The notes beneath the pieces were generated by a model, which was not told where the DNA came from, ran no database searches, and saw only the letters and a list, made by a program, of their open reading frames with translations. From positions 2,528,001 to 2,592,000 of the forward strand of contig OY760937.1 in NCBI GenBank assembly GCA_963664225.1: a stretch of DNA of 64,000 nucleotides, written 5' to 3'. The DNA is from Verrucomicrobiia bacterium (GTDB lineage Bacteria; Verrucomicrobiota; Verrucomicrobiia; Limisphaerales; UBA1319). Below, piece after piece: positions 3,994 through 57,101 of this stretch (position 1 is the stretch's first letter; every line of letters starts with the position of its first letter). Position numbers and translations under genes: made by a program.

Positions 3994-6687
3994 ATGGGCC
4001 ACATGATGAATCTCACCCATGGTATTCGCGCCATGACCCTGGCCTGTCTGGTGTTTGCAGGCTGCCGCAGCGATCACGGCCAGTCGGCACCCGGAGCTTC
4101 GGCATCGCCCCCGGTGGAGGTTCCCGGCGTTCGCGACGATGGCTCCGTGTTGTTGCCCAATCAATGGTCGCTCCGTCCGGTTGGCAAACAGGTCGCGGTG
4201 GGGGATTTTCCCGTCAATGTTGCGCTGCATCCATCCGGACAATACGCGGCGGTGTTGCATTGCGGCTATGGAACCCACGAAATCGTTGTGGCCCGGATTC
4301 CAGCGGGAACCATCGTCTCGCGCATACCGCTTGAGACCGCCTTTTATGGGCTGACCTTTTCGCGCGACGGTAAAAACCTGTTCGCGAGCGGAGCAGCGGG
4401 TGAAGTCGTTCATCGGTTCGCGTTCGCGGACGGTTTTTTGTCGGCGCCGCAGATGATTCAGTTGCGCGATGCCAGGACGCGTGGAATCCCGGCCGGTCTC
4501 GCCGTCAATGCGGATGGCACGAGGCTGTATGTCGCAAATGTGTGGGGGCATTGCGTCAATGCCGTGGATCTGACCAGCAACCAGGTGATTTGGGAGTATA
4601 AGTTTGGTCTCGATGGACAGGAAAAAGCCTATGCCACGAATGCCACTGCCGCGCCGCTGGATATCGCCGCCGCCACCAAGCGCGCCGAAGTGGCTCAGGA
4701 CACCACGCAAGCCCAGGATGCCTTTCCATACGCCTGCGCATTGGATGAATCCCGCAACCGCCTCTACGTGAGTTTATGGGCCCGTGCGGAGGTGGCGGTG
4801 CTGGATTTGAAGACGCACACGGAAATCGCACGCTGGAAAACCGAAGAGCATCCGAACGAGATGGTCCTCAGTAAAACCGGCGCGCAATTGTATGTGGCCA
4901 ATGCCAACCGGAACAGCGTGAGCGTTCTGGACACGGAAACCGGCAAGACGCTGGAGGTTCTGGTGGCCGTCATGATGGGTGCAAAGCAGGCCGGAACCGA
5001 TTTGAGCCCGGCAAGCAGTGGTGCTCCTGGTTTTGCATCGCCGGATTGGCAAACCAACGCCCCGGCGGGAAACACGCCGAACAGCCTGGCCCTCGCGCCC
5101 GATGGAAAGACCCTGTTCATCGCCAACGCCACCATCAACGCGCTGTCGGTGTTCGACGTCTCGGAACCCGGCCGCAGTCGTTCGCTGGGTTTTATTCCCA
5201 CCGGCTGGTATCCGACCACGGTGCGGGTCACGCCGGATGGCAAGCACCTCGTGGTGGCCAACGGCAAGGGACAGACCTCGCGCGCCAATCCCCACGGGCC
5301 CCAGCCTGGCAGGGAAGCCCCGAAGACCGTGAGCGAATACATTGGTGGATTGCTCCAGGGCACCATCAGCATTGTGACCCTACCCTCCAAAGCCAGCTTC
5401 GATGAACGGATGCGCACCTGGACCGCTGTGGCGAACAGTTGCCGACCCAAGACAGCGGAGGTGTATCCGCAGGAGGCGGGGCATCCAATCCCCCTTTCCG
5501 CCGACACCTCGCGGACGCCCATCAAGTATTGCCTCTATATCATCAAAGAGAATCGCACCTATGACCAGATGCTCGGCGACATGCCGGAAGGCAATGGCGA
5601 TGCGTCCCTGTGTCTCTTCGGCGAGGCGATCACTCCCAACCACCATGCGCTGGCCCGGGAGTTTGTGCTGTTGGACAATTTTTATGTGGATGGCGAGGTC
5701 AGCGCCGATGGCCACGAATGGACCATGGGCGCTTATGCGACGGATTTTGTGGAGAAATCCTGGCCGATGAGTTACGGGCATAACGCCTCGGGAAAGTTTC
5801 CTTATCCCAGCGAGGGGAACTATCCCATTGCCACACCCGCAGGCGGATACTTATGGGACCGCGCGCGCGAGGCGGGCGTCAGCTATCGCAGCTACGGTGA
5901 GTTCGTCAACAACGCCGCGTCCACCAACAAGCCCAACACCTGCCGGGTCGCCACGCTGGCGGGCCACTTCGATCCGTGGTATCGCAGCTTCGATCTGAAT
6001 TATCCGGATGCGTTGCGCGCGGATCGGTTTCTGGCCGAACTGGGCCGCTTCGAGAAAGAGGGGGACATGCCGCGACTGCAAATCGTCCGTTTGCCGAACG
6101 ACCATACCTCCGGCACCGCAGTGGGGAAACCCACACCCATCGCCTATGTTGCGGATAATGACCTGGCGCTCGGACGGGTCATCGAAGGACTCACGCATTC
6201 GAAATTCTGGGCGCAGACGGCCATTTTCATCATCGAAGACGACGCGCAAAACGGCCCGGACCATGTGGACGCCCACCGGAGCATCGCCTATGTCATCAGT
6301 CCCTACACGAAACGGCGGACAGTGGACTCAACCATGTATTCCACCAGCAGCATGCTGCACACCATCGAACTGATTCTGGGCCTGAAACCGATGAGCCAGT
6401 TCGACGCCGCCGCGATGCCCATGGTGAATGCCTTTACCGCCAAAGCGGATTTGCGGCCGTATGTCTGCAAACCGGTCACCGTGAACTTGAACGCGCGCAA
6501 TACGAAATTGGCATATGGCGCCGACCTGTCGAAGAAAATGGATTTTACGAAAGAGGACGCGGCGGACGACTTGATGCTCAACCGGGTCATCTGGCATTCG
6601 ATCAAGGGTCCGGACGTTCCTATGCCCGCGCCCAAGCGCTCGGCCTTCCTGCGCATGCCAACTCAAAAAGATCGGGACGACGACTGA
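3994..6687 (+). CDS. Lipoprotein: YVTN/YncE beta-propeller fused to a phosphoesterase (alkaline-phosphatase-like) domain
   Basis: Lipobox FAGC, repeated LYVAN blades, KENRTYD, SADGHEW, EDDAQNGPDHVDAHRS; exact start uncertain. Confidence 0.85.
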   Translation: MGHMMNLTHGIRAMTLACLVFAGCRSDHGQSAPGASASPPVEVPGVRDDGSVLLPNQWSLRPVGKQVAVGDFPVNVALHPSGQYAAVLHCGYGTHEIVVARIPAGTIVSRIPLETAFYGLTFSRDGKNLFASGAAGEVVHRFAFADGFLSAPQMIQLRDARTRGIPAGLAVNADGTRLYVANVWGHCVNAVDLTSNQVIWEYKFGLDGQEKAYATNATAAPLDIAAATKRAEVAQDTTQAQDAFPYACALDESRNRLYVSLWARAEVAVLDLKTHTEIARWKTEEHPNEMVLSKTGAQLYVANANRNSVSVLDTETGKTLEVLVAVMMGAKQAGTDLSPASSGAPGFASPDWQTNAPAGNTPNSLALAPDGKTLFIANATINALSVFDVSEPGRSRSLGFIPTGWYPTTVRVTPDGKHLVVANGKGQTSRANPHGPQPGREAPKTVSEYIGGLLQGTISIVTLPSKASFDERMRTWTAVANSCRPKTAEVYPQEAGHPIPLSADTSRTPIKYCLYIIKENRTYDQMLGDMPEGNGDASLCLFGEAITPNHHALAREFVLLDNFYVDGEVSADGHEWTMGAYATDFVEKSWPMSYGHNASGKFPYPSEGNYPIATPAGGYLWDRAREAGVSYRSYGEFVNNAASTNKPNTCRVATLAGHFDPWYRSFDLNYPDALRADRFLAELGRFEKEGDMPRLQIVRLPNDHTSGTAVGKPTPIAYVADNDLALGRVIEGLTHSKFWAQTAIFIIEDDAQNGPDHVDAHRSIAYVISPYTKRRTVDSTMYSTSSMLHTIELILGLKPMSQFDAAAMPMVNAFTAKADLRPYVCKPVTVNLNARNTKLAYGADLSKKMDFTKEDAADDLMLNRVIWHSIKGPDVPMPAPKRSAFLRMPTQKDRDDD

Positions 6688-38404: not shown

Positions 38405-40486
38405 GAATTGGGTGGTTTGGAAGGTGGACGAACATGCCGCTCCGCTGGAGCTTGAATTTCGTGGTTGTCGGATTTCTATAAACATGGCGCCCCTACGGAG
38501 CTTCTATTTGTGACCCATCGGGTGGAGAGGCACGCGTTCATTGGAATGGGTCTGCGACCCCTGCCGGGATCGTGTTGGCTGGGGTGCGTGTCCGGGGGTG
38601 TCAGTCGCGGACGACCTCGACCCCCGGCTAATCGCTGGCATCCCTGCTGGGATGCTTGGATTTCGTGGTAGTTGGATTTCTATAAACATGGCGCTCCTAC
38701 GGAGCTTCTATTTGCGATCCACCGGGTGGAGTGGCACGCGTTCATTGGAAAGGGTCTGCGATCCCTGCCGGGATCGTGTTGGCTGGGGTGCGTGTCCGGG
38801 GGTGTCAGTCGCGGACGACCTCGACCCCCGGCTAATCGCTGGCATCCCTGCCGGGATGCTTGAATTTCGTGGGTGTTCCGTTTTAAGAACATGCCGCTCC
38901 GCTGGAGCTTGGATTTCGTGGTAGTTGGATTTCTATAAACATGGCGCTCCTATGAAGCTTCTATTTGCGATCCACCGGGTGGAGAGGCACGCGTTCATTG
39001 GAAAGGGTCCGCGACCCCTGCCGGGATCGTGTTCGCTGGGGTGCGTGTCCGGGGGTGTCAGTCGAGGACGACCTCGACCCCCGGCTAATCGCTGGCATCC
39101 CTGCCGGGATGCTTGAATTTCGTGGTTGTTGGATTTCTATAAACATGGCGCTCCTACGGAGCTTCTATTTGCCATCCACCGGGTGGAAAGGCACGCGTTC
39201 ATTGGAAAGGGTCTGCGATCCCTGCCGGGATTGTATTGGTTGGGGTGCGTGTCCGGGGGTGTCAGTCGCGGACGACCTCGACCCCCGGCTAATCGCTGGC
39301 ATCCCTGCCGGGATGCTCGAATTTCGTTGTTGTCGGATTTCTATAAACATGGCGCTCCTACGGAGCTTCTATTTGCGATCCACCGGGTGGAGAGGCACGC
39401 GTTCATTGGAATGGGTCTGCAATCCCTGCCGGGATCGTGTTGGCTGGGGTGCGTGTCCGGGGGTGTCAGTCGCGGACGACCTCGACCCCCGGCTAATCGC
39501 TGGCATCCCTGCCGGGATGCTTGAATTTCGTGGTTGTTGCATTTCTATAAACATGGCGCTCCTATGGAGCTTCTATTTGCGATCCACCGGGTGGAGAGGC
39601 ACGGGTTACAAAGGGACGCCATGTGGGGTTGGTTGAGGGAAGAATGGAGGATGGATAGTCGAAAGTGGTCGCGGAATGAATTGGGTGGTTTGGAAGGTGG
39701 ATAAACATGCCGCTCCGCTGGAGCTTGAATTTCGTTGTTGTTTGATTTCTATAAACATGTCGCTCCTACGGAGCTTCAATTTGAGACCCATCGGGTGGAG
39801 AGGCACGCGTTCATTGGAATGGGTCTGCAATCCCTGCCGGGATCGTGTTGGCTGGGGTGCGTGTCCGGGGGTGTCAGTCGCGGACGACCTCGACCCCCGG
39901 CTAATCGCTGGCATCCCTGCCGGGATGCTTGAATTTCGTGGTTGTTGCATTTCTATAAACATGGCGCTCCTACGGAGCTTCTATTTGCGATCCACCGGGT
40001 GGAGAGGCACGCGTTCATTGGAATGGGTCTGCGATCCCTGCCGGGATCGTGTTGGCTGGGGTGCGTGTCCGGGGGTGTCAGTCGCGGACGACCTCGACCC
40101 CCGGCTAATCGCTGGCATCCCTGCCGGGATGCTTGAATTTCGTTGTTGTCGGATTTCTATAAACATGGCGCTCCTACGGAGCTTCTATTTGCGATCTACC
40201 GGGTGGAGAGGCACGCGTTCATTGGAAAGGGTCTGCGATCCCTGCCGGGATTGTATTGGTTGGGGTGCGTGTCCGGGGGTGTCAGTCGCGGACGACCTCG
40301 ACCCCCGGCTAATCGCTGGCATCCCTGCCGGGATGCTTGAATTTCGTTGTTGTCGGATTTCTATAAACATGGCGCTTCTACGGAGCTTCTATTTGCGATC
40401 CACCGGGTGGAGAGGCACGCGTTCATTGGAATGGGTCCGCGACCCCTGCCGGGATCGTGTTGGCTGAGGTGCGTGTCCGGGGGTGT
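38405..40486. repeat. Tandem array of 204-bp REP/BIME-like mosaic units
   Basis: Full units at 38470, 38674, 38927, 39131, 39335, 39743, 39947, 40151; partial units at 39539 and 40355. Confidence 0.95.
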
Positions 40487-40744: not shown

Positions 40745-40923
40745 TTGCGCCCTGTGAGTTTGAGACGGTTGGCGGATTGGAAATCCGCGATACGGCAGGA
40801 TGTCTGCGCTACGGGTGGTGAAGCGCAATTTCGCTCCAGTCTGTGGAGTCCGCTGCCGACTTACATTCCATGGAGCGTCTGATAGTTCGCTCGATTGCAG
40901 GTTGGAAACCTGCGAAACGGCAG
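40745..40923. repeat. REP-like cluster (129-bp family) interrupted by IS110
   Basis: gcggattggaaatccgc and gcaggttggaaacctgc hairpins; the repeat resumes at 42121. Confidence 0.85.
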
Positions 40924-40931
40924 CAACGGTG

Positions 40932-41870
40932 TCATGGAGCAACACAGAATCTGGGATCTTTTAGGGCATGATTCATCAATACGATGAGTTTCCGCATCAC
41001 TGCTGTCAGCGCCACTTTGGGCTTCTTGCCCGCCGCCCGCAGCCTCTTATAAAAGGCCTTGAGGATGGAATTGCAGCGCACCGCTGCCACGGAGGCCATG
41101 TAGAGGGCGCGGCGCACCCCGGTCCGGCCGCCACCAATGTGACGCTGGCCTTCCCAAGGGCCGCTCTGGCGCACCCACGGGGCCAGCCCCGCCAGGGCTG
41201 CCGCCTGGCCCCGGTTGAGGGTTCCCAGTTCGGGCATCTGCGCCACTACCGTCACGGCCGTCAGCATCCCCACGCCGGGAATTTCCGCCAGGCGGGTGAC
41301 TTGTTTTTGCTCGACGGCGTGGCGGGCCAGGGCGGCGGTTAATTCGGCCAGCACTGCGGCCAAACGGCTTTCCAGATGCCGTATCAGCTTGGCGTGTTCG
41401 GTGCGGACGAAGGGTGAGTCGTGGTGTTCGGCCTGATTTTTGGCGATGGTCAGGAGATCTTTGAGTTGTTCGCGCCAGGTCACCAGGGCGGTGAGCTCAG
41501 TGTGGGCTGGCGTCGGGGCGGTGGTGGCAGCGGGCTCCAGGGCCTTGCCGAAGGCGCTCAGGCTGGCAGCATCGATCGGATCGCTCTTGGCCCGCTGGCC
41601 GGTGGCGCGGGCGAAGGCACGGGTCTGGGCCGGGTTGACCACGCTGACGGGTAAACCGGCCGTGTGAAGTGCCGCCACGACGGCACGCTCATAGCCGCCA
41701 GTGGCTTCGAGGATCACGTGGGCACCGGGCACAGCACCCAGACATTGGACCAGTTGTGTGTGCCCCGCCGCATCGTTGGTCACGTCCAGGAGCCGTCCGG
41801 GAAGGTGAAGTTGGAGAGTGGCCTTGGCGACGTCCAGACCGACATGGACAGGGGCGGATTTTTCAGTCAT
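40932..41870 (-). CDS. IS110 DEDD recombinase
   Basis: GLDVAK, LEATG, AKSDPIDA (DEDD); IPGVG, GLAP..RQSG; start at MTEK. Confidence 0.96.
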   Translation of the reverse strand: MTEKSAPVHVGLDVAKATLQLHLPGRLLDVTNDAAGHTQLVQCLGAVPGAHVILEATGGYERAVVAALHTAGLPVSVVNPAQTRAFARATGQRAKSDPIDAASLSAFGKALEPAATTAPTPAHTELTALVTWREQLKDLLTIAKNQAEHHDSPFVRTEHAKLIRHLESRLAAVLAELTAALARHAVEQKQVTRLAEIPGVGMLTAVTVVAQMPELGTLNRGQAAALAGLAPWVRQSGPWEGQRHIGGGRTGVRRALYMASVAAVRCNSILKAFYKRLRAAGKKPKVALTAVMRKLIVLMNHALKDPRFCVAP

Positions 41871-41879
41871 AATATTAAA

Positions 41880-42105
41880 GTTGTTCGGACTCATTCTTGC
41901 AAATACGAGCTGGCGTTGTAACACGCCGCTCTGGTAACGGTTCGAGTTTCGGACAAAGGCGAGCGCGATTCATGCTGCCGTACGGTCTGGCTTTCACCAG
42001 ACCAAGATTGGAACGAACACGCGTCCGCCGTCCCTTCCCCGCCTGCAGGCGGGGAAGGGACACCACTTCTTTCTTGTTCAACGCGAACCAACAAACAAGT
42101 GGCAA
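41880..42105 (-). ncRNA. Putative bridge RNA of IS110 copy 1
   Basis: Internal loops carry TTCCAATCT/ACGGCAG matching the target and ACCGTT/GCAAG matching the donor; ends approximate. Confidence 0.8.
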
Positions 42106-42191
42106 ATTCAAACATACAAGACTGGAAGTCTGCGCTACGGGTGGCGCGGGGGTGGGGACACCCCGGCCTTCAGGGTCGTGGGTTTATTCGA

Positions 42192-44597
42192 CTAGTGCAT
42201 CAGGGCCTGGCGGACTTTGTCGGCCAGGACTTCCCTGGTGAAAGGTTTTTGGAGGAAGTGAATGCCTTCCTCCAGAATGCCGTTGTGGGCGATGATGTCG
42301 GCGGTGTAGCCGGACATGAAGAGGCGCTTGAGGCCCGGGTGGAGCGAGAGCAGGCATTTGGCGAGGTCCTGTCCGTTCATTTCGGGCATGATCACGTCGG
42401 TGATCAAGAGGTGGATTTCTCCGGCGTGCCCGCTGGCCAGGCGGACGGCTTCGCCCGGGGTGCCGGCGGTGAGGACGGTGTAGCCCAGGCTTTCGAGGAC
42501 GCGCCTGCCGATAATCAAGATGGACGGTTCGTCCTCGACCAGGAGGATGGTCTCGAGACCGCGCACCGTCGGCACGGCTGGGCCTTCCCTGTGAATCGGC
42601 GGGGCTTCTTCGGCATGGCGCGGCACATGCAATTTGAAGGTTGTGCCGCAGCCCGGTTTGCTTTCGACATTAATGAATGCGTGATTTTGTTTTACGATGC
42701 CGTAAACGGTGGCCAACCCGAGACCCGTGCCTTTGCCAACGTCCTTGGTGGTGAAAAACGGCTCAAAGAGGTGCGTCAGCACTTCTTTATCCATGCCGCA
42801 ACCGTCATCGCTGAATGCGAGTGTCACATAATCGCCAGGGACAATGTCGGTGTGGGTTTGGCAATAGGCCTGGTCGATGGTGACGTTTTCTGTCTTGAGG
42901 GTGATTTTGCCCACGCCGCCGATGGCGTCCCGGGCGTTGAGGCAGAGGTTGGCGAGCACCTGGCCAACCTGGCCGGGATCGGCCTTGATCGGCCAGAGGC
43001 CCGTGGCGGGGTGCCACTCCAGGTCGATGTCCCCGCCGATGATCCCCCGCAGCATCTTGAGCATGGATTCCAGAGTCTCGTTGAGGTCCAGGATCTTGGG
43101 CGAGGCGATTTGTTTGCGGGCGAAGGCCAGAAGCTGGCGGGTGAGGTCCGCCGAGCGCCGGGCGCATTTTTCGATTTCCGCGAGGTTCTCACGATGCGGG
43201 CTGTCCGGCGGGAGGTCCTCGATGACCATGGCCGCGTTTCCCTGGATGACGGTGAGCATGCTGTTAAAATCGTGGGCCACACCGCCTGCCAGACGTCCGA
43301 CGGATTCCATTTTCTGCGCCTGGGTCAACTTCTCCTGGAGTTTCTCACGCTCTTCCTGCGAGTGTTTGATGTCTTGAATGTCCGTGCAGGTGCCAAACCA
43401 TTTAAGGATGCCTCCCTTTTCATCCAAAACAGGGACGCCGCGAATCAGCCACCAGCGATAAACGCCGTCCCGCCGGCGTAATCTGCATTCGAGCGAGTAG
43501 GTGGCATTGTTTGTGACTGCGTTCTGCCAGGCATCCCAGGCGCGTTGCTGGTCGTCGGGGTGGAAAGGTATGTTCCAGCCATGACCGTGGCTTTCTTCGG
43601 GTGTGAGTCCTGTGTATTCGAACCACTGTCGGTTGAAATAAATGTTCCAGCCATCGGCCCGGGTCGCCCAGACAATCTGGGGCATGGCCTCGGCCAGCAA
43701 ATGAAACTCCTTTTCGCTGGAAGCCAGCGCCTCCCCGGCCTGGACGCGTTCCGTGATGTCCTGGATGGTGCCGATCATGGCAACGATTTTTCCATCCGCG
43801 TCGAAACTGGTCTCTCCCAATCCATTGACCCACCGGACTTCGCCGTCGGACTTGCGGAGGATGCGGTATTCTTTATTGAATGGCCTGCGTTTCGCGATGA
43901 CTTCCTCTTTCAAGTAGCGGTCCATCATCTCCCGGTCATCCGGATGGGTGATGTCCAGCCAGCCGGGAACGCTCCTGACGTAGTTCTTGTCGATGCCGAA
44001 TATCTGGTCGAGGACTTCGGACGATTCCCAAAAACCCGCGACAAAGTCGGTTTTATAGGAACCAATAAATGCGACACGCTGCGATTCCTTGAAGAAGAAC
44101 TCGCTGTCCCGCAGGGCCTTCTCGGCCTGACTGCGCGAGGCCAGCTCCTCTTCCAGCTTCCGGGTGCGTTCGGCCACGAGCGCGGCGAGTTGGTCTTTCT
44201 CGAGGCGCTGCAGGCGATTTGCGGCCTTGATCCTGGCCATGACCCGAAGCTGGGCGAGCAATTCCACCTCATCCAGGGGCTTGGGGAGAAAGCCTTCGGC
44301 ACCGGCGTCCAAGGCCTGGATGCGGCTATCACGGTCGGTTATCAGGCCGGTGAGAAACACCACGGGAATGGACTGGAGGCGGTCGTCCTCCTTGAGTTCG
44401 CGGCAAACAGAAAACCCGTCCATGCCTGGCATCAGGATATCGAGCAGGACGACGTCTGGGTCCTCGGCGCGGGCCAGGGCGACTCCCTCGGGGCCACTCA
44501 AAGCGGTCAGGATTTCGGTCCCGGGCAACGCACCCCCCACGGCAGCCTTCAACATGATCAGGTCATTCGGGCTGTCGTCAATGGCGAGTATCTTCAT
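42192..44597 (-). CDS. Hybrid histidine kinase REC-PAS-PAS-HisKA-HATPase-REC
   Basis: N-terminal REC (LLDILMPGMDG), two PAS_3 domains (HPDD), GVAHDFN, GTGLGL, C-terminal REC. Confidence 0.93.
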   Translation of the reverse strand: MKILAIDDSPNDLIMLKAAVGGALPGTEILTALSGPEGVALARAEDPDVVLLDILMPGMDGFSVCRELKEDDRLQSIPVVFLTGLITDRDSRIQALDAGAEGFLPKPLDEVELLAQLRVMARIKAANRLQRLEKDQLAALVAERTRKLEEELASRSQAEKALRDSEFFFKESQRVAFIGSYKTDFVAGFWESSEVLDQIFGIDKNYVRSVPGWLDITHPDDREMMDRYLKEEVIAKRRPFNKEYRILRKSDGEVRWVNGLGETSFDADGKIVAMIGTIQDITERVQAGEALASSEKEFHLLAEAMPQIVWATRADGWNIYFNRQWFEYTGLTPEESHGHGWNIPFHPDDQQRAWDAWQNAVTNNATYSLECRLRRRDGVYRWWLIRGVPVLDEKGGILKWFGTCTDIQDIKHSQEEREKLQEKLTQAQKMESVGRLAGGVAHDFNSMLTVIQGNAAMVIEDLPPDSPHRENLAEIEKCARRSADLTRQLLAFARKQIASPKILDLNETLESMLKMLRGIIGGDIDLEWHPATGLWPIKADPGQVGQVLANLCLNARDAIGGVGKITLKTENVTIDQAYCQTHTDIVPGDYVTLAFSDDGCGMDKEVLTHLFEPFFTTKDVGKGTGLGLATVYGIVKQNHAFINVESKPGCGTTFKLHVPRHAEEAPPIHREGPAVPTVRGLETILLVEDEPSILIIGRRVLESLGYTVLTAGTPGEAVRLASGHAGEIHLLITDVIMPEMNGQDLAKCLLSLHPGLKRLFMSGYTADIIAHNGILEEGIHFLQKPFTREVLADKVRQALMH

Positions 44598-49744: not shown

Positions 49745-50166
49745 GAAGACTGGAAGTTAGCCGGGATGTATCTGACGATTGACTTGAAAGGTCTTAATGG
49801 CGCGTGGCGCAGGTTCTCAACATTCCGGATCGCCGACTCACAGTCAATGGGGCGCCTGATAGTTCGCTCGATTGCAGGTTGGAAACCTGCGAAACGGCAG
49901 ACTGGAAGTCTGCGCTACGGGTTGTGAAGCGCAATTTCGCTCCAGTCTGTGGAGTCCGCTGCCGACTCACAGTCAATGGGGCGCCTGATAGTTCGCTCGA
50001 TTGCAGGTTGGAAACCTGCGAAACGGCAGACTGGAAGTCTGCGCTACGGGTGGTGAAGCGCAATTTCGCTCCAGTCTGTGGAGTTCGCTGCCGACTTACA
50101 TTCCATGGAGCGTCTGATATTTCGCTCGATTGCAGGTTGGAAACCTGCGAAACGGCAGCAACGGTG

Positions 50167-51105
50167 TCATGGAGCAACACAGAATCTGGGATCTTTTAGG
50201 GCATGATTCATCAATACGATGAGTTTCCGCATCACTGCTGTCAGCGCCACTTTGGGCTTCTTGCCCGCCGCCCGCAGCCTCTTATAAAAGGCCTTGAGGA
50301 TGGAATTGCAGCGCACCGCTGCCACGGAGGCCATGTAGAGGGCGCGGCGCACCCCGGTCCGGCCGCCACCAATGTGACGCTGGCCTTCCCAAGGGCCGCT
50401 CTGGCGCACCCACGGGGCCAGCCCCGCCAGGGCTGCCGCCTGGCCCCGGTTGAGGGTTCCCAGTTCGGGCATCTGCGCCACTACCGTCACGGCCGTCAGC
50501 ATCCCCACGCCGGGAATTTCCGCCAGGCGGGTGACTTGTTTTTGCTCGACGGCGTGGCGGGCCAGGGCGGCGGTTAATTCGGCCAGCACTGCGGCCAAAC
50601 GGCTTTCCAGATGCCGTATCAGCTTGGCGTGTTCGGTGCGGACGAAGGGTGAGTCGTGGTGTTCGGCCTGATTTTTGGCGATGGTCAGGAGATCTTTGAG
50701 TTGTTCGCGCCAGGTCACCAGGGCGGTGAGCTCAGTGTGGGCTGGCGTCGGGGCGGTGGTGGCAGCGGGCTCCAGGGCCTTGCCGAAGGCGCTCAGGCTG
50801 GCAGCATCGATCGGATCGCTCTTGGCCCGCTGGCCGGTGGCGCGGGCGAAGGCACGGGTCTGGGCCGGGTTGACCACGCTGACGGGTAAACCGGCCGTGT
50901 GAAGTGCCGCCACGACGGCACGCTCATAGCCGCCAGTGGCTTCGAGGATCACGTGGGCACCGGGCACAGCACCCAGACATTGGACCAGTTGTGTGTGCCC
51001 CGCCGCATCGTTGGTCACGTCCAGGAGCCGTCCGGGAAGGTGAAGTTGGAGAGTGGCCTTGGCGACGTCCAGACCGACATGGACAGGGGCGGATTTTTCA
51101 GTCAT
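50167..51105 (-). CDS. IS110 DEDD recombinase
   Basis: Translation identical to copy 1. Confidence 0.96.
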   Translation of the reverse strand: MTEKSAPVHVGLDVAKATLQLHLPGRLLDVTNDAAGHTQLVQCLGAVPGAHVILEATGGYERAVVAALHTAGLPVSVVNPAQTRAFARATGQRAKSDPIDAASLSAFGKALEPAATTAPTPAHTELTALVTWREQLKDLLTIAKNQAEHHDSPFVRTEHAKLIRHLESRLAAVLAELTAALARHAVEQKQVTRLAEIPGVGMLTAVTVVAQMPELGTLNRGQAAALAGLAPWVRQSGPWEGQRHIGGGRTGVRRALYMASVAAVRCNSILKAFYKRLRAAGKKPKVALTAVMRKLIVLMNHALKDPRFCVAP

Positions 51106-51114
51106 AATATTAAA

Positions 51115-51340
51115 GTTGTTCGGACTCATTCTTGCAAATACGAGCTGGCGTTGTAACACGCCGCTCTGGTAACGGTTCGAGTTTCGGACAAAGGCGAGCG
51201 CGATTCATGCTGCCGTACGGTCTGGCTTTCACCAGACCAAGATTGGAACGAACACGCGTCCGCCGTCCCTTCCCCGCCTGCAGGCGGGGAAGGGACACCA
51301 CTTCTTTCTTGTTCAACGCGAACCAACAAACAAGTGGCAA
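51115..51340 (-). ncRNA. Putative bridge RNA of IS110 copy 2
   Basis: Same sequence as the copy 1 left end. Confidence 0.8.
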
Positions 51341-51702
51341 ATTCAAACATACAAGACTGGAAGTCTGCGCTACGGGTGGTGAAGCGCAATTTCGTTCCAG
51401 TCTGTGGAGTCCGCTGCCGACTCACAGTCAATGGGGCGTTTGATAGTTCGCTCGATTGCAGGTTGGAAACCTGCGAAACGGCAGACTGGAAGTCTGCGCT
51501 ACATGGAAAAGGTTTTGCGATTCCTGCCGGGACTGTAAGTTTGAGACGGTTCGCAGATTGGCAATCTGCGATACAGCAGCTTAGGCAAGCTGCGCTACGA
51601 ACTGCGGTGACGGCGCGCAGAGGACTGCACGCCCTACCACGAGCGAAACGGCGGTCGCGAACCGGAGAAGTTTGTTCGGTGCATTGAAAATTTGAAAAGG
51701 CC

Positions 51703-51870
51703 GGAAGTTAGCGGGGCTGTTTCTGACGATTGACTTGAAAGGTCTTAATGGCGCGTGGCGCAGGTTCTCAACATTCCGGACTGCCGACTCACAGTCAATG
51801 GGGCGCCTGATAGTTCGCTCGATTGCAGGTTGGAAACCTGCGAGACGGCGGACTGGAAGTCTGCGCTACG
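51703..51870. repeat. About 170-bp near-duplicate of 49752-49919 (leader plus one REP unit)
   Basis: Shared tctgacgattgacttgaaaggtcttaatggcgcgtggcgcaggttctcaacattccgga and following unit. Confidence 0.88.
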
Positions 51871-56337: not shown

Positions 56338-57014
56338 CAGCGGGCGGAGCTTGGGGCGGATTTGGAACCGTTGGATTTAAAAACGTCGTAAGCCAGTCAG
56401 GAGACCGGCGCTCCGGGGACACCAGCGGGCGGAGCTTGGGACGGATTTGGAACCGTTGGATTTAAAAACGTCGTAAGCCGGTCAGGAGACCGGCGCTCCG
56501 GGGACAGCAGCGGGCGGAGCTTGGGACGGATTTGGAACCGTTGGATTTAAAAACGTCGTAAGCCAGTCAGGAGACCGGCGCTCAGGGACAACAGCGGGCG
56601 GAGCTTGGGGCGGATTTGGAACCGTTGGATTTAAAAACGTCGTAAGCCGGTCAGGAGACCGGCGCTCAAGGACAACAGCGGGCGGAGCTTGGGGCGGATT
56701 TGGAACCGTTGGATTTAAAAACGTCGTAAGCCAGTCAGGAGACCGGCGCTCAGGGACAACAGCGGGCGGAGCTTGGGGCGGATTTGGAACCGTTGGATTT
56801 AAAAACGTCGTAAGCCAGTCAGGAGACCGGCGCTCCGGGGACAGCAGCGGGCGGAGCTTGGGGCGGATTTGGAACCGTTGGATTTAAAAACGTCGTAAGC
56901 CAGTCAGGAGACCGGCGCTCCGGGGACAGCAGCGGGCGGAGCTTGGGGCGGATTTGGAACCGTTGGATTTAAAAACGTCGTAAGCCGGTCAGGAGACCGG
57001 CGCTCCGGGGACAG
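56338..57014. repeat. Tandem array of eight 84-85-bp units
   Basis: Unit starts at 56338, 56423, 56508, 56592, 56676, 56760, 56845, 56930; hairpin gccggtc-agga-gaccggc. Confidence 0.97.
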
Positions 57015-57101
57015 CAAATGTATTGCCAGCAAACAGGCGTTGTGTCATTTCAATGGCACACATTACCGAACCAATAAACACGCTGACGCGACGCGACCTG
57101 G

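Follow-up and report, generated by a model that had tools for sequence, protein, structure and literature searches.

Bridge RNAs have been predicted in thousands of IS110 elements across prokaryotes (Durrant et al., PMC11208160), and most of the natural sets of guides and targets in that work hold 0-2 mismatches. The recombinases of these insertion sequences (IS) have a published range of 300-460 amino acids, with 326 in IS621, the element to which most of the comparisons below are made. Here we describe an element found in a 64,000-nucleotide (nt) stretch of the genome of a Verrucomicrobiia bacterium (contig OY760937.1 of assembly GCA_963664225.1, positions 2,528,001 to 2,592,000; the whole stretch is called the window, its coordinates are used throughout and the element reads on its minus strand). 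It is assigned, with a probability that we put at about 0.9, as a 1,197-base-pair (bp) insertion sequence of the IS110 group, the group of IS621, which is present in two copies and combines a DEDD/Ser recombinase with a bridge RNA encoded in its left end. This is a known kind of element, with an unusually complete and readable anatomy; a full-text search of the literature returned no paper joining bridge RNA with Verrucomicrobi, although published orthologue tables may already list the clade.

The loops of the 177-nt bridge RNA of IS621 (PDB 8wt6) are laid out in the part of PMC11208158 that was drawn on here. The target loop is composed of a C-G-U linker, a 9-nt left target guide, a U, a hairpin, G-U (G72-U73), the right target guide and two handshake nucleotides. 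The donor loop contains a linker, an 8-nt left donor guide (A...C), a hairpin, a G-U linker and a right donor guide (A157-G165) that runs A-U, two looped-out U's, a G paired with T, and C-A-A-G; a further two handshake nucleotides and a U complete the loop. The same part of that source describes a G.T pair between IS621 and its own natural target at one position. Screens with IS621 showed that mismatches in the target loop are poorly tolerated, donor position 7 being the sole position reported as tolerant.

Three other systems are relevant. ISCro4 / IS622 (PDB 9t56), of the same family, are Enterobacteria orthologues engineered for genome editing, as stated in the consulted part of 10.1101/2025.05.14.653916, and are likened to the window element by their protein. 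ISPpu10 and ISPpu9 of Pseudomonas putida are presented, in the excerpts of 10.64898/2026.03.19.712850 and PMC12288879 used here, as IS110 elements residing in repetitive extragenic palindromes (REPs) that form stem-loops, and a 5' extension that pairs with the left target is described for ISPpu10 in the first of these. The IS1111 group shares the protein family and the RNA-guided logic, and carries its RNA in a long right end together with subterminal inverted repeats of 7-17 bp.

Recombinase, ends and host repeat

The assignment draws on the anatomy of the sequence, the family of the protein, the occupied and empty target sites, the structure of the RNA and the covariation of guides and flanks in relatives, all of which are shown here. 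The recombinase is matched by Pfam PF01548 and PF02371 (both with E of about 1e-17, above the cut-offs) and by NCBIfam NF033542, 'IS110 family RNA-guided transposase', with 191.4 bits against a cut-off of 140, and it matches the structure chains of IS621 (8wt6, E 7e-34) and, with similar strength, ISCro4 (9t56, E 8.4e-33). Its D13, E55, D97, D100 and S236-G237 (numbered in the 312-amino-acid form) align to D11, E60, D102, D105 and S241-G242 of IS621, as numbered in the consulted part of PMC11208158, from which the 8wt6 chain is offset by +2. These catalytic columns (D, E, D, D, S-G) are invariant in all 18 aligned homologues. The family is large, since 6,877 of 8,000 scored candidates reach E <= 1e-20, and most of the 120 homologues listed have 307-322 amino acids. 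The protein had been called compact on the basis of the sequence alone: its size of 312 amino acids is correct, but it lies within the published range, and thousands of homologues of 307-322 amino acids exist.

An upstream ATG at 41894 gives a 320-amino-acid form, which is the one found in the protein database. The additional stretch (41871-41894; MSPNNFNI...) begins within the 3' arm of the outer stem of the donor loop described below. Some homologues have a similar N-terminal extension, and what is conserved there may be the RNA and not the protein.

Copy A measures 1,197 bp when one CT core is counted and spans from TGTAT (42118) to ...ACCGTTG-CT (40922). The core is duplicated, the left CT being at 42120-42119 and the right one, which precedes the right target half, at 40923-40922. 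Copy B is 100% identical to it over 1,245 bp including short flanks (42144-40900 vs 51379-50135), and both copies have the same orientation and position within a palindromic repeat of the host. When the flanks of the element are rejoined, they give exactly the sequence found at three empty sites in the window. The target proposed in the sequence-only reading, TTCCAGT-CT-GCCGT, is therefore real, being unbroken at these three repeat copies, and as two further sites are interrupted, two of the five perfect sites in the window are occupied. The donor junction ACCGTTG-CT-TGTAT, also proposed in that reading, follows from the right end (40930-40922) joined to the left end (42118-42114). The left end has 248 nt and the right end extends only 9 nt past the stop codon, which is the end asymmetry of the IS110 group. 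Membership of the IS1111 group was considered and rejected, because of this 9-nt right end and because the RNA modules lie in the left end.

The interrupted repeat is the head of a 129-bp unit that is arrayed at 49832-50158 and around 51380-51500. A 13-mer anchor taken from the repeat has nine matches in the window against 1.3 expected, seven of them belonging to the repeat family. All the repeat copies are intergenic, short, palindromic and present in multiple copies, as REP-like sequences are, and the likeness to the REPs of Escherichia coli is one of analogy only. Folded as single-stranded DNA, the head of the unit forms two hairpins, each with a TCC loop and a T-A closing pair (fold z = -5.4). 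The insertion point falls in the 3' arm of the first of them, GCAGAC-TTCCA-GTCTGC, an arm that spans target positions 6-11 across the core. The target thus overlaps a hairpin, as the excerpts cited above describe for ISPpu10 and ISPpu9; here it is the 3' arm of the hairpin that spans target positions 6-11, instead of the pairing of a 5' extension with the left target that is described for ISPpu10.

A second type of repeat, at 40750-40812 and 51520-51640 (minus strand), adjoins the 129-bp units. It shares the GTAGCGCAG head and has different hairpins, such as GCGGAT-TTCCA-ATCCGC and GCAGAT-TGCCA-ATCTGC. The element is not inserted in this second type.

Anatomy of the bridge RNA

The left end folds into two 5' hairpins followed by two stem-loops with internal loops (Table 1). 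The predicted energy of this fold is -108 kcal/mol, compared with -75.9 +/- 4.6 in shuffled sequences (z = -7.0), and none of 200 shuffles is as stable. The five motifs on which the sequence-only reading was built, namely TTCCAATCT (42013-42005), ACGGCAG (41981-41975), the stem between them, ACCGTT (41941-41936) and TGCAAG (41901-41896), are all present on the minus strand, and they fall within the two internal-loop modules.

The target-binding module is organized around the stem GGTCTGG/CCAGACC (42003-41997 and 41990-41984). A conserved UCG stands directly 5' of the left target guide, which has a single mismatch: at target position 6 it carries A where the target has G, placing rA opposite dC in both copies. 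A GU linker (41983-41982) precedes the right target guide, whose complementarity to the core and right target half is complete. The mismatch of the left guide had been taken as a natural example of guide mismatch tolerance, and it is indeed present in both copies, but it is not a new phenomenon, given the 0-2 mismatches of most natural sets (PMC11208160) and the G.T pair of IS621 with its natural target.

The donor-binding module reads, in order, ACUC, GA, ACCGUUAC, inner hairpin, GU, AUUUGCAAG, AA, U and GAGU. The donor guides had been given in a shorter form by the sequence-only reading. ACCGTT is the beginning of an 8-nt left guide, ACCGUUAC, which has an additional, unlisted mismatch at position 7 (A vs G), found in this element only among the 24 distinct elements compared below. 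TGCAAG, described as having one wobble, belongs to a discontinuous 9-nt right guide, AUUUGCAAG, in which two U's are looped out and 7 of 7 positions pair, one of them as G.T. As both this guide and CT-TGTAT are lettered as in IS621, the wobble corresponds to the G.T pair of the IS621 structure. The donor-loop handshake dinucleotide is AA (41895-41894); its first A is complementary to target position 7 (T), and the dinucleotide does not pair with its own DNA.

The element and IS621 therefore have in common the two protein domains and the catalytic residues, an RNA in the long left end with a very short right end, the CT core and a target in a palindromic extragenic repeat. Both loops consist in both elements of a stem, a 5' guide, a hairpin and a 3' guide, with handshake dinucleotides after the right guides, a single U linker after the left target guide, GU before both right guides and an 8-nt left donor guide of the form A...C; AUUUGCAAG as right donor guide and CT-TGTAT as right donor half are the same in both, letter by letter. 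Unlike in IS621, there are two 5' hairpins rather than one (the extra one being 42061-42030), the left end exceeds that of IS621 by about 70 nt, the sequences of the target and of the left donor are different, and A.C mismatches occur at target position 6 and donor position 7. The right target guide has 7 nt, whereas the natural one of IS621 has 4 nt, and longer guides have been published for other orthologues. The protein match to IS621 is remote (E 7e-34). The identification of an IS621-type bridge RNA with a CT core and a host-repeat target, made at first from the sequence alone, is backed by the protein, the ends, the architecture, the four guides, the handshakes and the covariation in relatives.

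A promoter-like site on the plus strand, TGGACA-17 nt-CATAAT (10/12, consensus match only), is located at the start of the recombinase gene (41845-41873) and points antisense into the bridge RNA gene. It is also present in copy B.

Table 1. Coordinates of the element, of the parts of its RNA and of its target sites in the window.
Feature	Position	Strand	Basis or remark
Copy A, IS110-group insertion sequence	40922..42118	minus	ends read from sequence; flanks rejoin to empty-site sequence
Copy B, identical element	50157..51353	minus	same point in another copy of the host repeat
Recombinase gene, 312 amino acids	40932..41870	minus	PF01548 + PF02371, NF033542, IS621 match
Left target half TTCCAGT (host DNA)	42121..42127	minus	followed by core CT
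Right target half GCCGT (host DNA)	40917..40921	minus	preceded by core CT
First 5' stem-loop	42062..42103	minus	minimum-free-energy fold
Second 5' stem-loop, GC-rich 14-bp hairpin	42030..42061	minus	minimum-free-energy fold
Target-binding loop module: outer stem, internal loop, inner GAAA-capped hairpin (42003-41984)	41958..42029	minus	fold and covariation
Left target guide UUCCAAUCU (read as TTCCAATCT)	42005..42013	minus	8/9 to left target + core; then U linker
Right target guide ACGGCAG	41975..41981	minus	exact reverse complement of CT+GCCGT, 7/7
Target-loop handshake dinucleotide CA	41973..41974	minus	complementary to donor positions 6-7 (TG), not to cognate target
Donor-binding loop module: outer stem ACUC/GAGU, internal loop, inner hairpin (41931-41907)	41889..41947	minus	covariation
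Left donor guide ACCGUUAC, 8 nt	41934..41941	minus	7/8 to ACCGTTG + C of core; A vs G at position 7
Right donor guide AUUUGCAAG, 9 nt	41896..41904	minus	discontinuous reading of CTTGTAT, two U's looped out, one G.T pair
Empty target site, exact 14-mer TTCCAGT-CT-GCCGT in 129-bp unit	49894..49907	minus	sequence search
Empty target site, exact 14-mer	50023..50036	minus	sequence search
Empty target site, exact 14-mer	51478..51491	minus	sequence search
Target variant with CC core	51845..51858	minus	sequence search

Chance controls and covariation in relatives

To estimate how often the target guides would occur by chance, the 248-nt left end was subjected to dinucleotide shuffling 20,000 times. 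A match of at least 8/9 to the left target plus core appeared in 400 shuffles and the exact 7-mer of the right guide in 252, but both guides in order and 10-45 nt apart were found in a single one. Across both strands of the 64 kb, the composite pattern is present only at 42013/41981 and 51248/51216, that is, in the two copies.

Relatives were collected by scanning genome contigs with an alignment of 18 homologues, which yielded 79 loci from many phyla with 38-70% identity. The closest ones carry Binatia, Verrucomicrobiia and Limisphaerales labels, with a protein identity of at most 70%. The description of the element as belonging to a distant lineage is accordingly a fair one, the nearest loci being in Verrucomicrobiota-type metagenome genomes and the match to IS621 being remote. 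CT-TGTAT opens the left end in most of 52 aligned left ends, and (A/C)(C/A)GTTG-CT closes the right end in most of the 52 loci with a stop codon. The right ends of the relatives include the CCGTTGCT type.

Since a MAFFT alignment of the 52 left ends was too gappy, anchors and then a covariance model were used instead. RNAalifold, applied to a 12-sequence alignment, predicted 37 pairs, 26 of them with compensatory changes, and the second 5' stem-loop (columns 70-105 of this alignment) has such changes in all of its 14 pairs. The covariance model covers the two modules, with 142 positions and 33 pairs, and scores 136 bits at both 41889-42029 and 51124-51264. In 58 of 80 sources it finds a total of 60 matches, and these lie no more than about 150 nt upstream of the recombinase match of their locus; the exception is L021, where a second match is found downstream (4490-4612). 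All three Enterobacteriaceae plasmid loci tested (E. coli, Phytobacter) are also scored upstream of their IS110 genes, with 41.6, 24.1 and 13.5 bits; one of these, L080, is no closer to IS621 than the window element is. In the alignment to the model 91.4% of the cells are paired, compared with 33-44% in slid controls, and 32 of the 33 pairs change on both sides; none of 500 shuffles reaches this. In helix 1 of the target module, which is 96% paired, 13 of 13 pairs change on both sides, and in helices 5 and 6 of the donor module 12 of 13 do.

The comparison of guides with flanks started from 60 rows, 38 of which had both ends, and after removal of 12 duplicates and of 2 rows with gapped right guides (L009 and L022) comprised 24 distinct elements. 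Loci whose ends could not be set (L012, L014, L016, L018 and a few more) were left out; L069, with a right end that is probably mis-set, stayed in the set. In 14 of the 24 elements the right target guide fits its own core and right flank exactly (7/7), compared with 3 of 552 cross-pairings. For the 8-nt left target guide, matches to its own flank number 6.33 on average, compared with 3.98 in cross-pairings. None of 20,000 permutations reaches the observed total for guides and flanks. The left donor guide tracks a C/A difference at donor position 3 across the relatives. The handshakes behave in the same crossed manner as in the window: the first nucleotide of the target-loop handshake is complementary to donor position 7 in 24/24 elements, and that of the donor-loop handshake to target position 7 in 21/24 (231/552 in cross-pairings), whereas pairing with the cognate DNA is seen in 0/24 for both loops.

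Several relatives deserve mention on their own account. Twelve Longimicrobiales metagenome copies (L044-L049, L051, L057, L058, L060, L061 and L073) have identical target and donor guides and occupy sites that match the left target guide loosely, most of them being, by eye, of the approximate form ..C(C/G)GC-CT-(A/G)AC(A/G)A; the set is a natural example of looser left-side specificity in that clade. Two decayed relatives were also found, L009 (266-394), in which a deletion in the target loop has removed the right target guide, and L010 (3001-3253), with a frame that is stopped early. An element of Kiritimatiellota (L020:2745) has TT instead of CT at its left junction and keeps CT at its right end, which fits either a target with a TT core or the resolution of a heteroduplex to TT.

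Copy A lies 70 bp downstream of the stop codon of a gene for a hybrid sensor kinase/response regulator (Response_reg, PAS, HisKA and HATPase_c domains; 42192-44597, minus strand), and the genes between copies A and B encode ordinary enzymes of sugar metabolism. About 440 bp downstream of copy A starts a tandem array (38430-40486) of about ten 204-bp units with 86-96% matches, which are open in several frames and give rise to many spurious open reading frames. Another array, at 56338-57016, is composed of eight 85-bp units in tandem with 97% identity.

Proposed cycle, alternative readings and meaning

By analogy with the work on IS621, we infer that the element is transcribed, that its RNA is bound by the recombinase, and that a circular form and the same chemistry are involved. 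Excision would yield a circle in which the two ends of the element meet at the CT core, creating the donor site ACCGTTG-CT-TGTAT. This junction would bring TTGCTC, a -35-like hexamer of the right end, and TATGTT of the left end to a spacing of 17 nt, and the resulting promoter would drive a left-end RNA of about 215-230 nt containing the two 5' hairpins and the two internal-loop modules. A recombinase tetramer would then engage both DNAs, the target being held by the first loop and the donor junction by the second, through ACCGUUAC and AUUUGCAAG. Ser236 would cut after CT, and the dinucleotides located 3' of the right guides (CA and AA) would pair with positions 6-7 of the other DNA, leading to top-strand exchange, after which the Holliday junction would be resolved. 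The expected product is an element within the 3' arm of the host repeat hairpin, with CT on both flanks. Among the relatives, 17 of 23 circle junctions have a TTG-starting hexamer 16-18 nt before a TAT... hexamer, none of 23 integrated flanks does, and a promoter scan of the integrated copy of the window element detected no promoter-like site on the minus strand.

Several observations weigh against the assignment of the element as a whole or in part. Rfam 15 has no match to the left end at E <= 10 and none at gathering score in the window, and 22 of the 80 sources, including some truncated loci and a divergent subfamily, have no covariance-model match at E <= 0.01. The alignment in which pairs were counted had been fitted to the model, which favours structure, and the position-by-position comparison with the IS621 RNA depends on the residue identities quoted in the consulted part of PMC11208158. 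The junction promoter proposed for the window element (TTGCTC-17-TATGTT) is weak, with 3/6 and 4/6 (7/12) agreement to the E. coli consensus, as a consensus match only. In both left guides an A faces a C beside the core (target position 6 in one, donor position 7 in the other), and mismatches were poorly tolerated in the IS621 screens save at donor position 7; the one at target position 6 lies in the interior and is the less expected of the two. The left target guide has no perfect match anywhere in the window. Finally, the 129-bp units directly downstream of the two copies (40795-40921 and 50030-50156) are, by our own reading, of the same subtype, with 2 differences between them, whereas the other four units in view have a different version of the middle stretch.

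This last observation could be due to a preference for a target subtype, to coincidence or to a joint duplication of the IS and its flank, so that the second copy could stem from duplication rather than from transposition. An alternative in which the bridge RNA is correctly identified, and the second copy arose together with its flanking unit by homologous recombination or gene conversion between arrays, would leave the recent activity of the element not shown. It would account for the identity that covers 24 bp of the repeat upstream, beyond the core, and the arrays present at both places supply the homology; but the upstream flanks are wholly different beyond about 26 bp (the end of the kinase gene in one case and a repeat unit in the other), the junctions are exactly those of a CT-core insertion with both reading frames intact, and with six unit bodies in view the shared subtype could be coincidental. 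We regard this alternative as doubtful, while granting it more weight than those that follow. The claim that the element was recently active is plausible: two identical, intact copies fit it, but the shared downstream subtype allows for duplication or gene conversion as well.

The mismatch in the left target guide invites another explanation, according to which the occupied sites are second-best and the true cognate is a variant of the repeat with A at position 6, TTCCAAT-CT-GCCGT, located elsewhere in the genome or in a former host. Position 6 of the left target guide is A both in this element and in its closest relative, L001, and the repeat in the host of L001 has a compensated stem, GCAGAT...ATCTGC, with A at that position, while the IS621 screens indicate a low tolerance for mismatches in the target loop. 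As L001 resides in a homologous, compensated repeat with the same guide letter, the guide of the window element may lag behind the repeat of its host. However, the window contains five sites with G, two of them occupied, and not one perfect match to the guide, and guide position 3 (C) fits the loop of this host and not that of L001; we consider a better cognate elsewhere improbable. Very improbable, finally, is the possibility that the left end is only a leader or promoter with subterminal repeats bound by the transposase, the flank matches being due to chance or to insertion into repeats, because even if the relatives share conserved, not variable, motifs on the donor side, which taken by themselves could be protein-binding sites, and RNAalifold pairs the start of the left end with the right donor guide, the target-loop letters follow their own flanks (14/24 vs 3/552; 0/20,000 permutations), 32 of 33 stem pairs change on both sides yet keep pairing, the composite pattern in the window is reached by 1 of 20,000 shuffles, and a protein-binding repeat would not predict a top-strand copy and a reverse complement across one hairpin.

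Taken as an IS110-group element with a bridge RNA in its left end, this element leaves the knowledge of the mechanism unchanged. It shows that the rules of IS621 (the layout of the guides, the linkers, the looped-out right donor guide and the handshakes) are readable from raw sequence in a remote lineage, and with a small covariance model derived from this clade the same RNA is recovered ahead of recombinase genes from many phyla. It also adds one natural orthologue whose 14-bp target is matched at 13 of 14 positions, whose right target guide has 7 nt and for which both occupied and empty sites are known.

A more speculative proposal, which we consider unlikely, is that the two A-opposite-C mismatches are not noise, the element being part-way through retargeting or the weakened pairing on the core side acting as a natural throttle. 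If retargeting were true, the guide letter would fit a hairpin of the L001 type (ATCTGC, not GTCTGC), after a switch of host or the evolution of the host repeat; if the throttle were true, the weakened pairing would limit both insertion and excision. Under either of them, this pair of elements and repeats would offer a natural setting in which to study how bridge RNAs keep up with palindromic repeats as these evolve.

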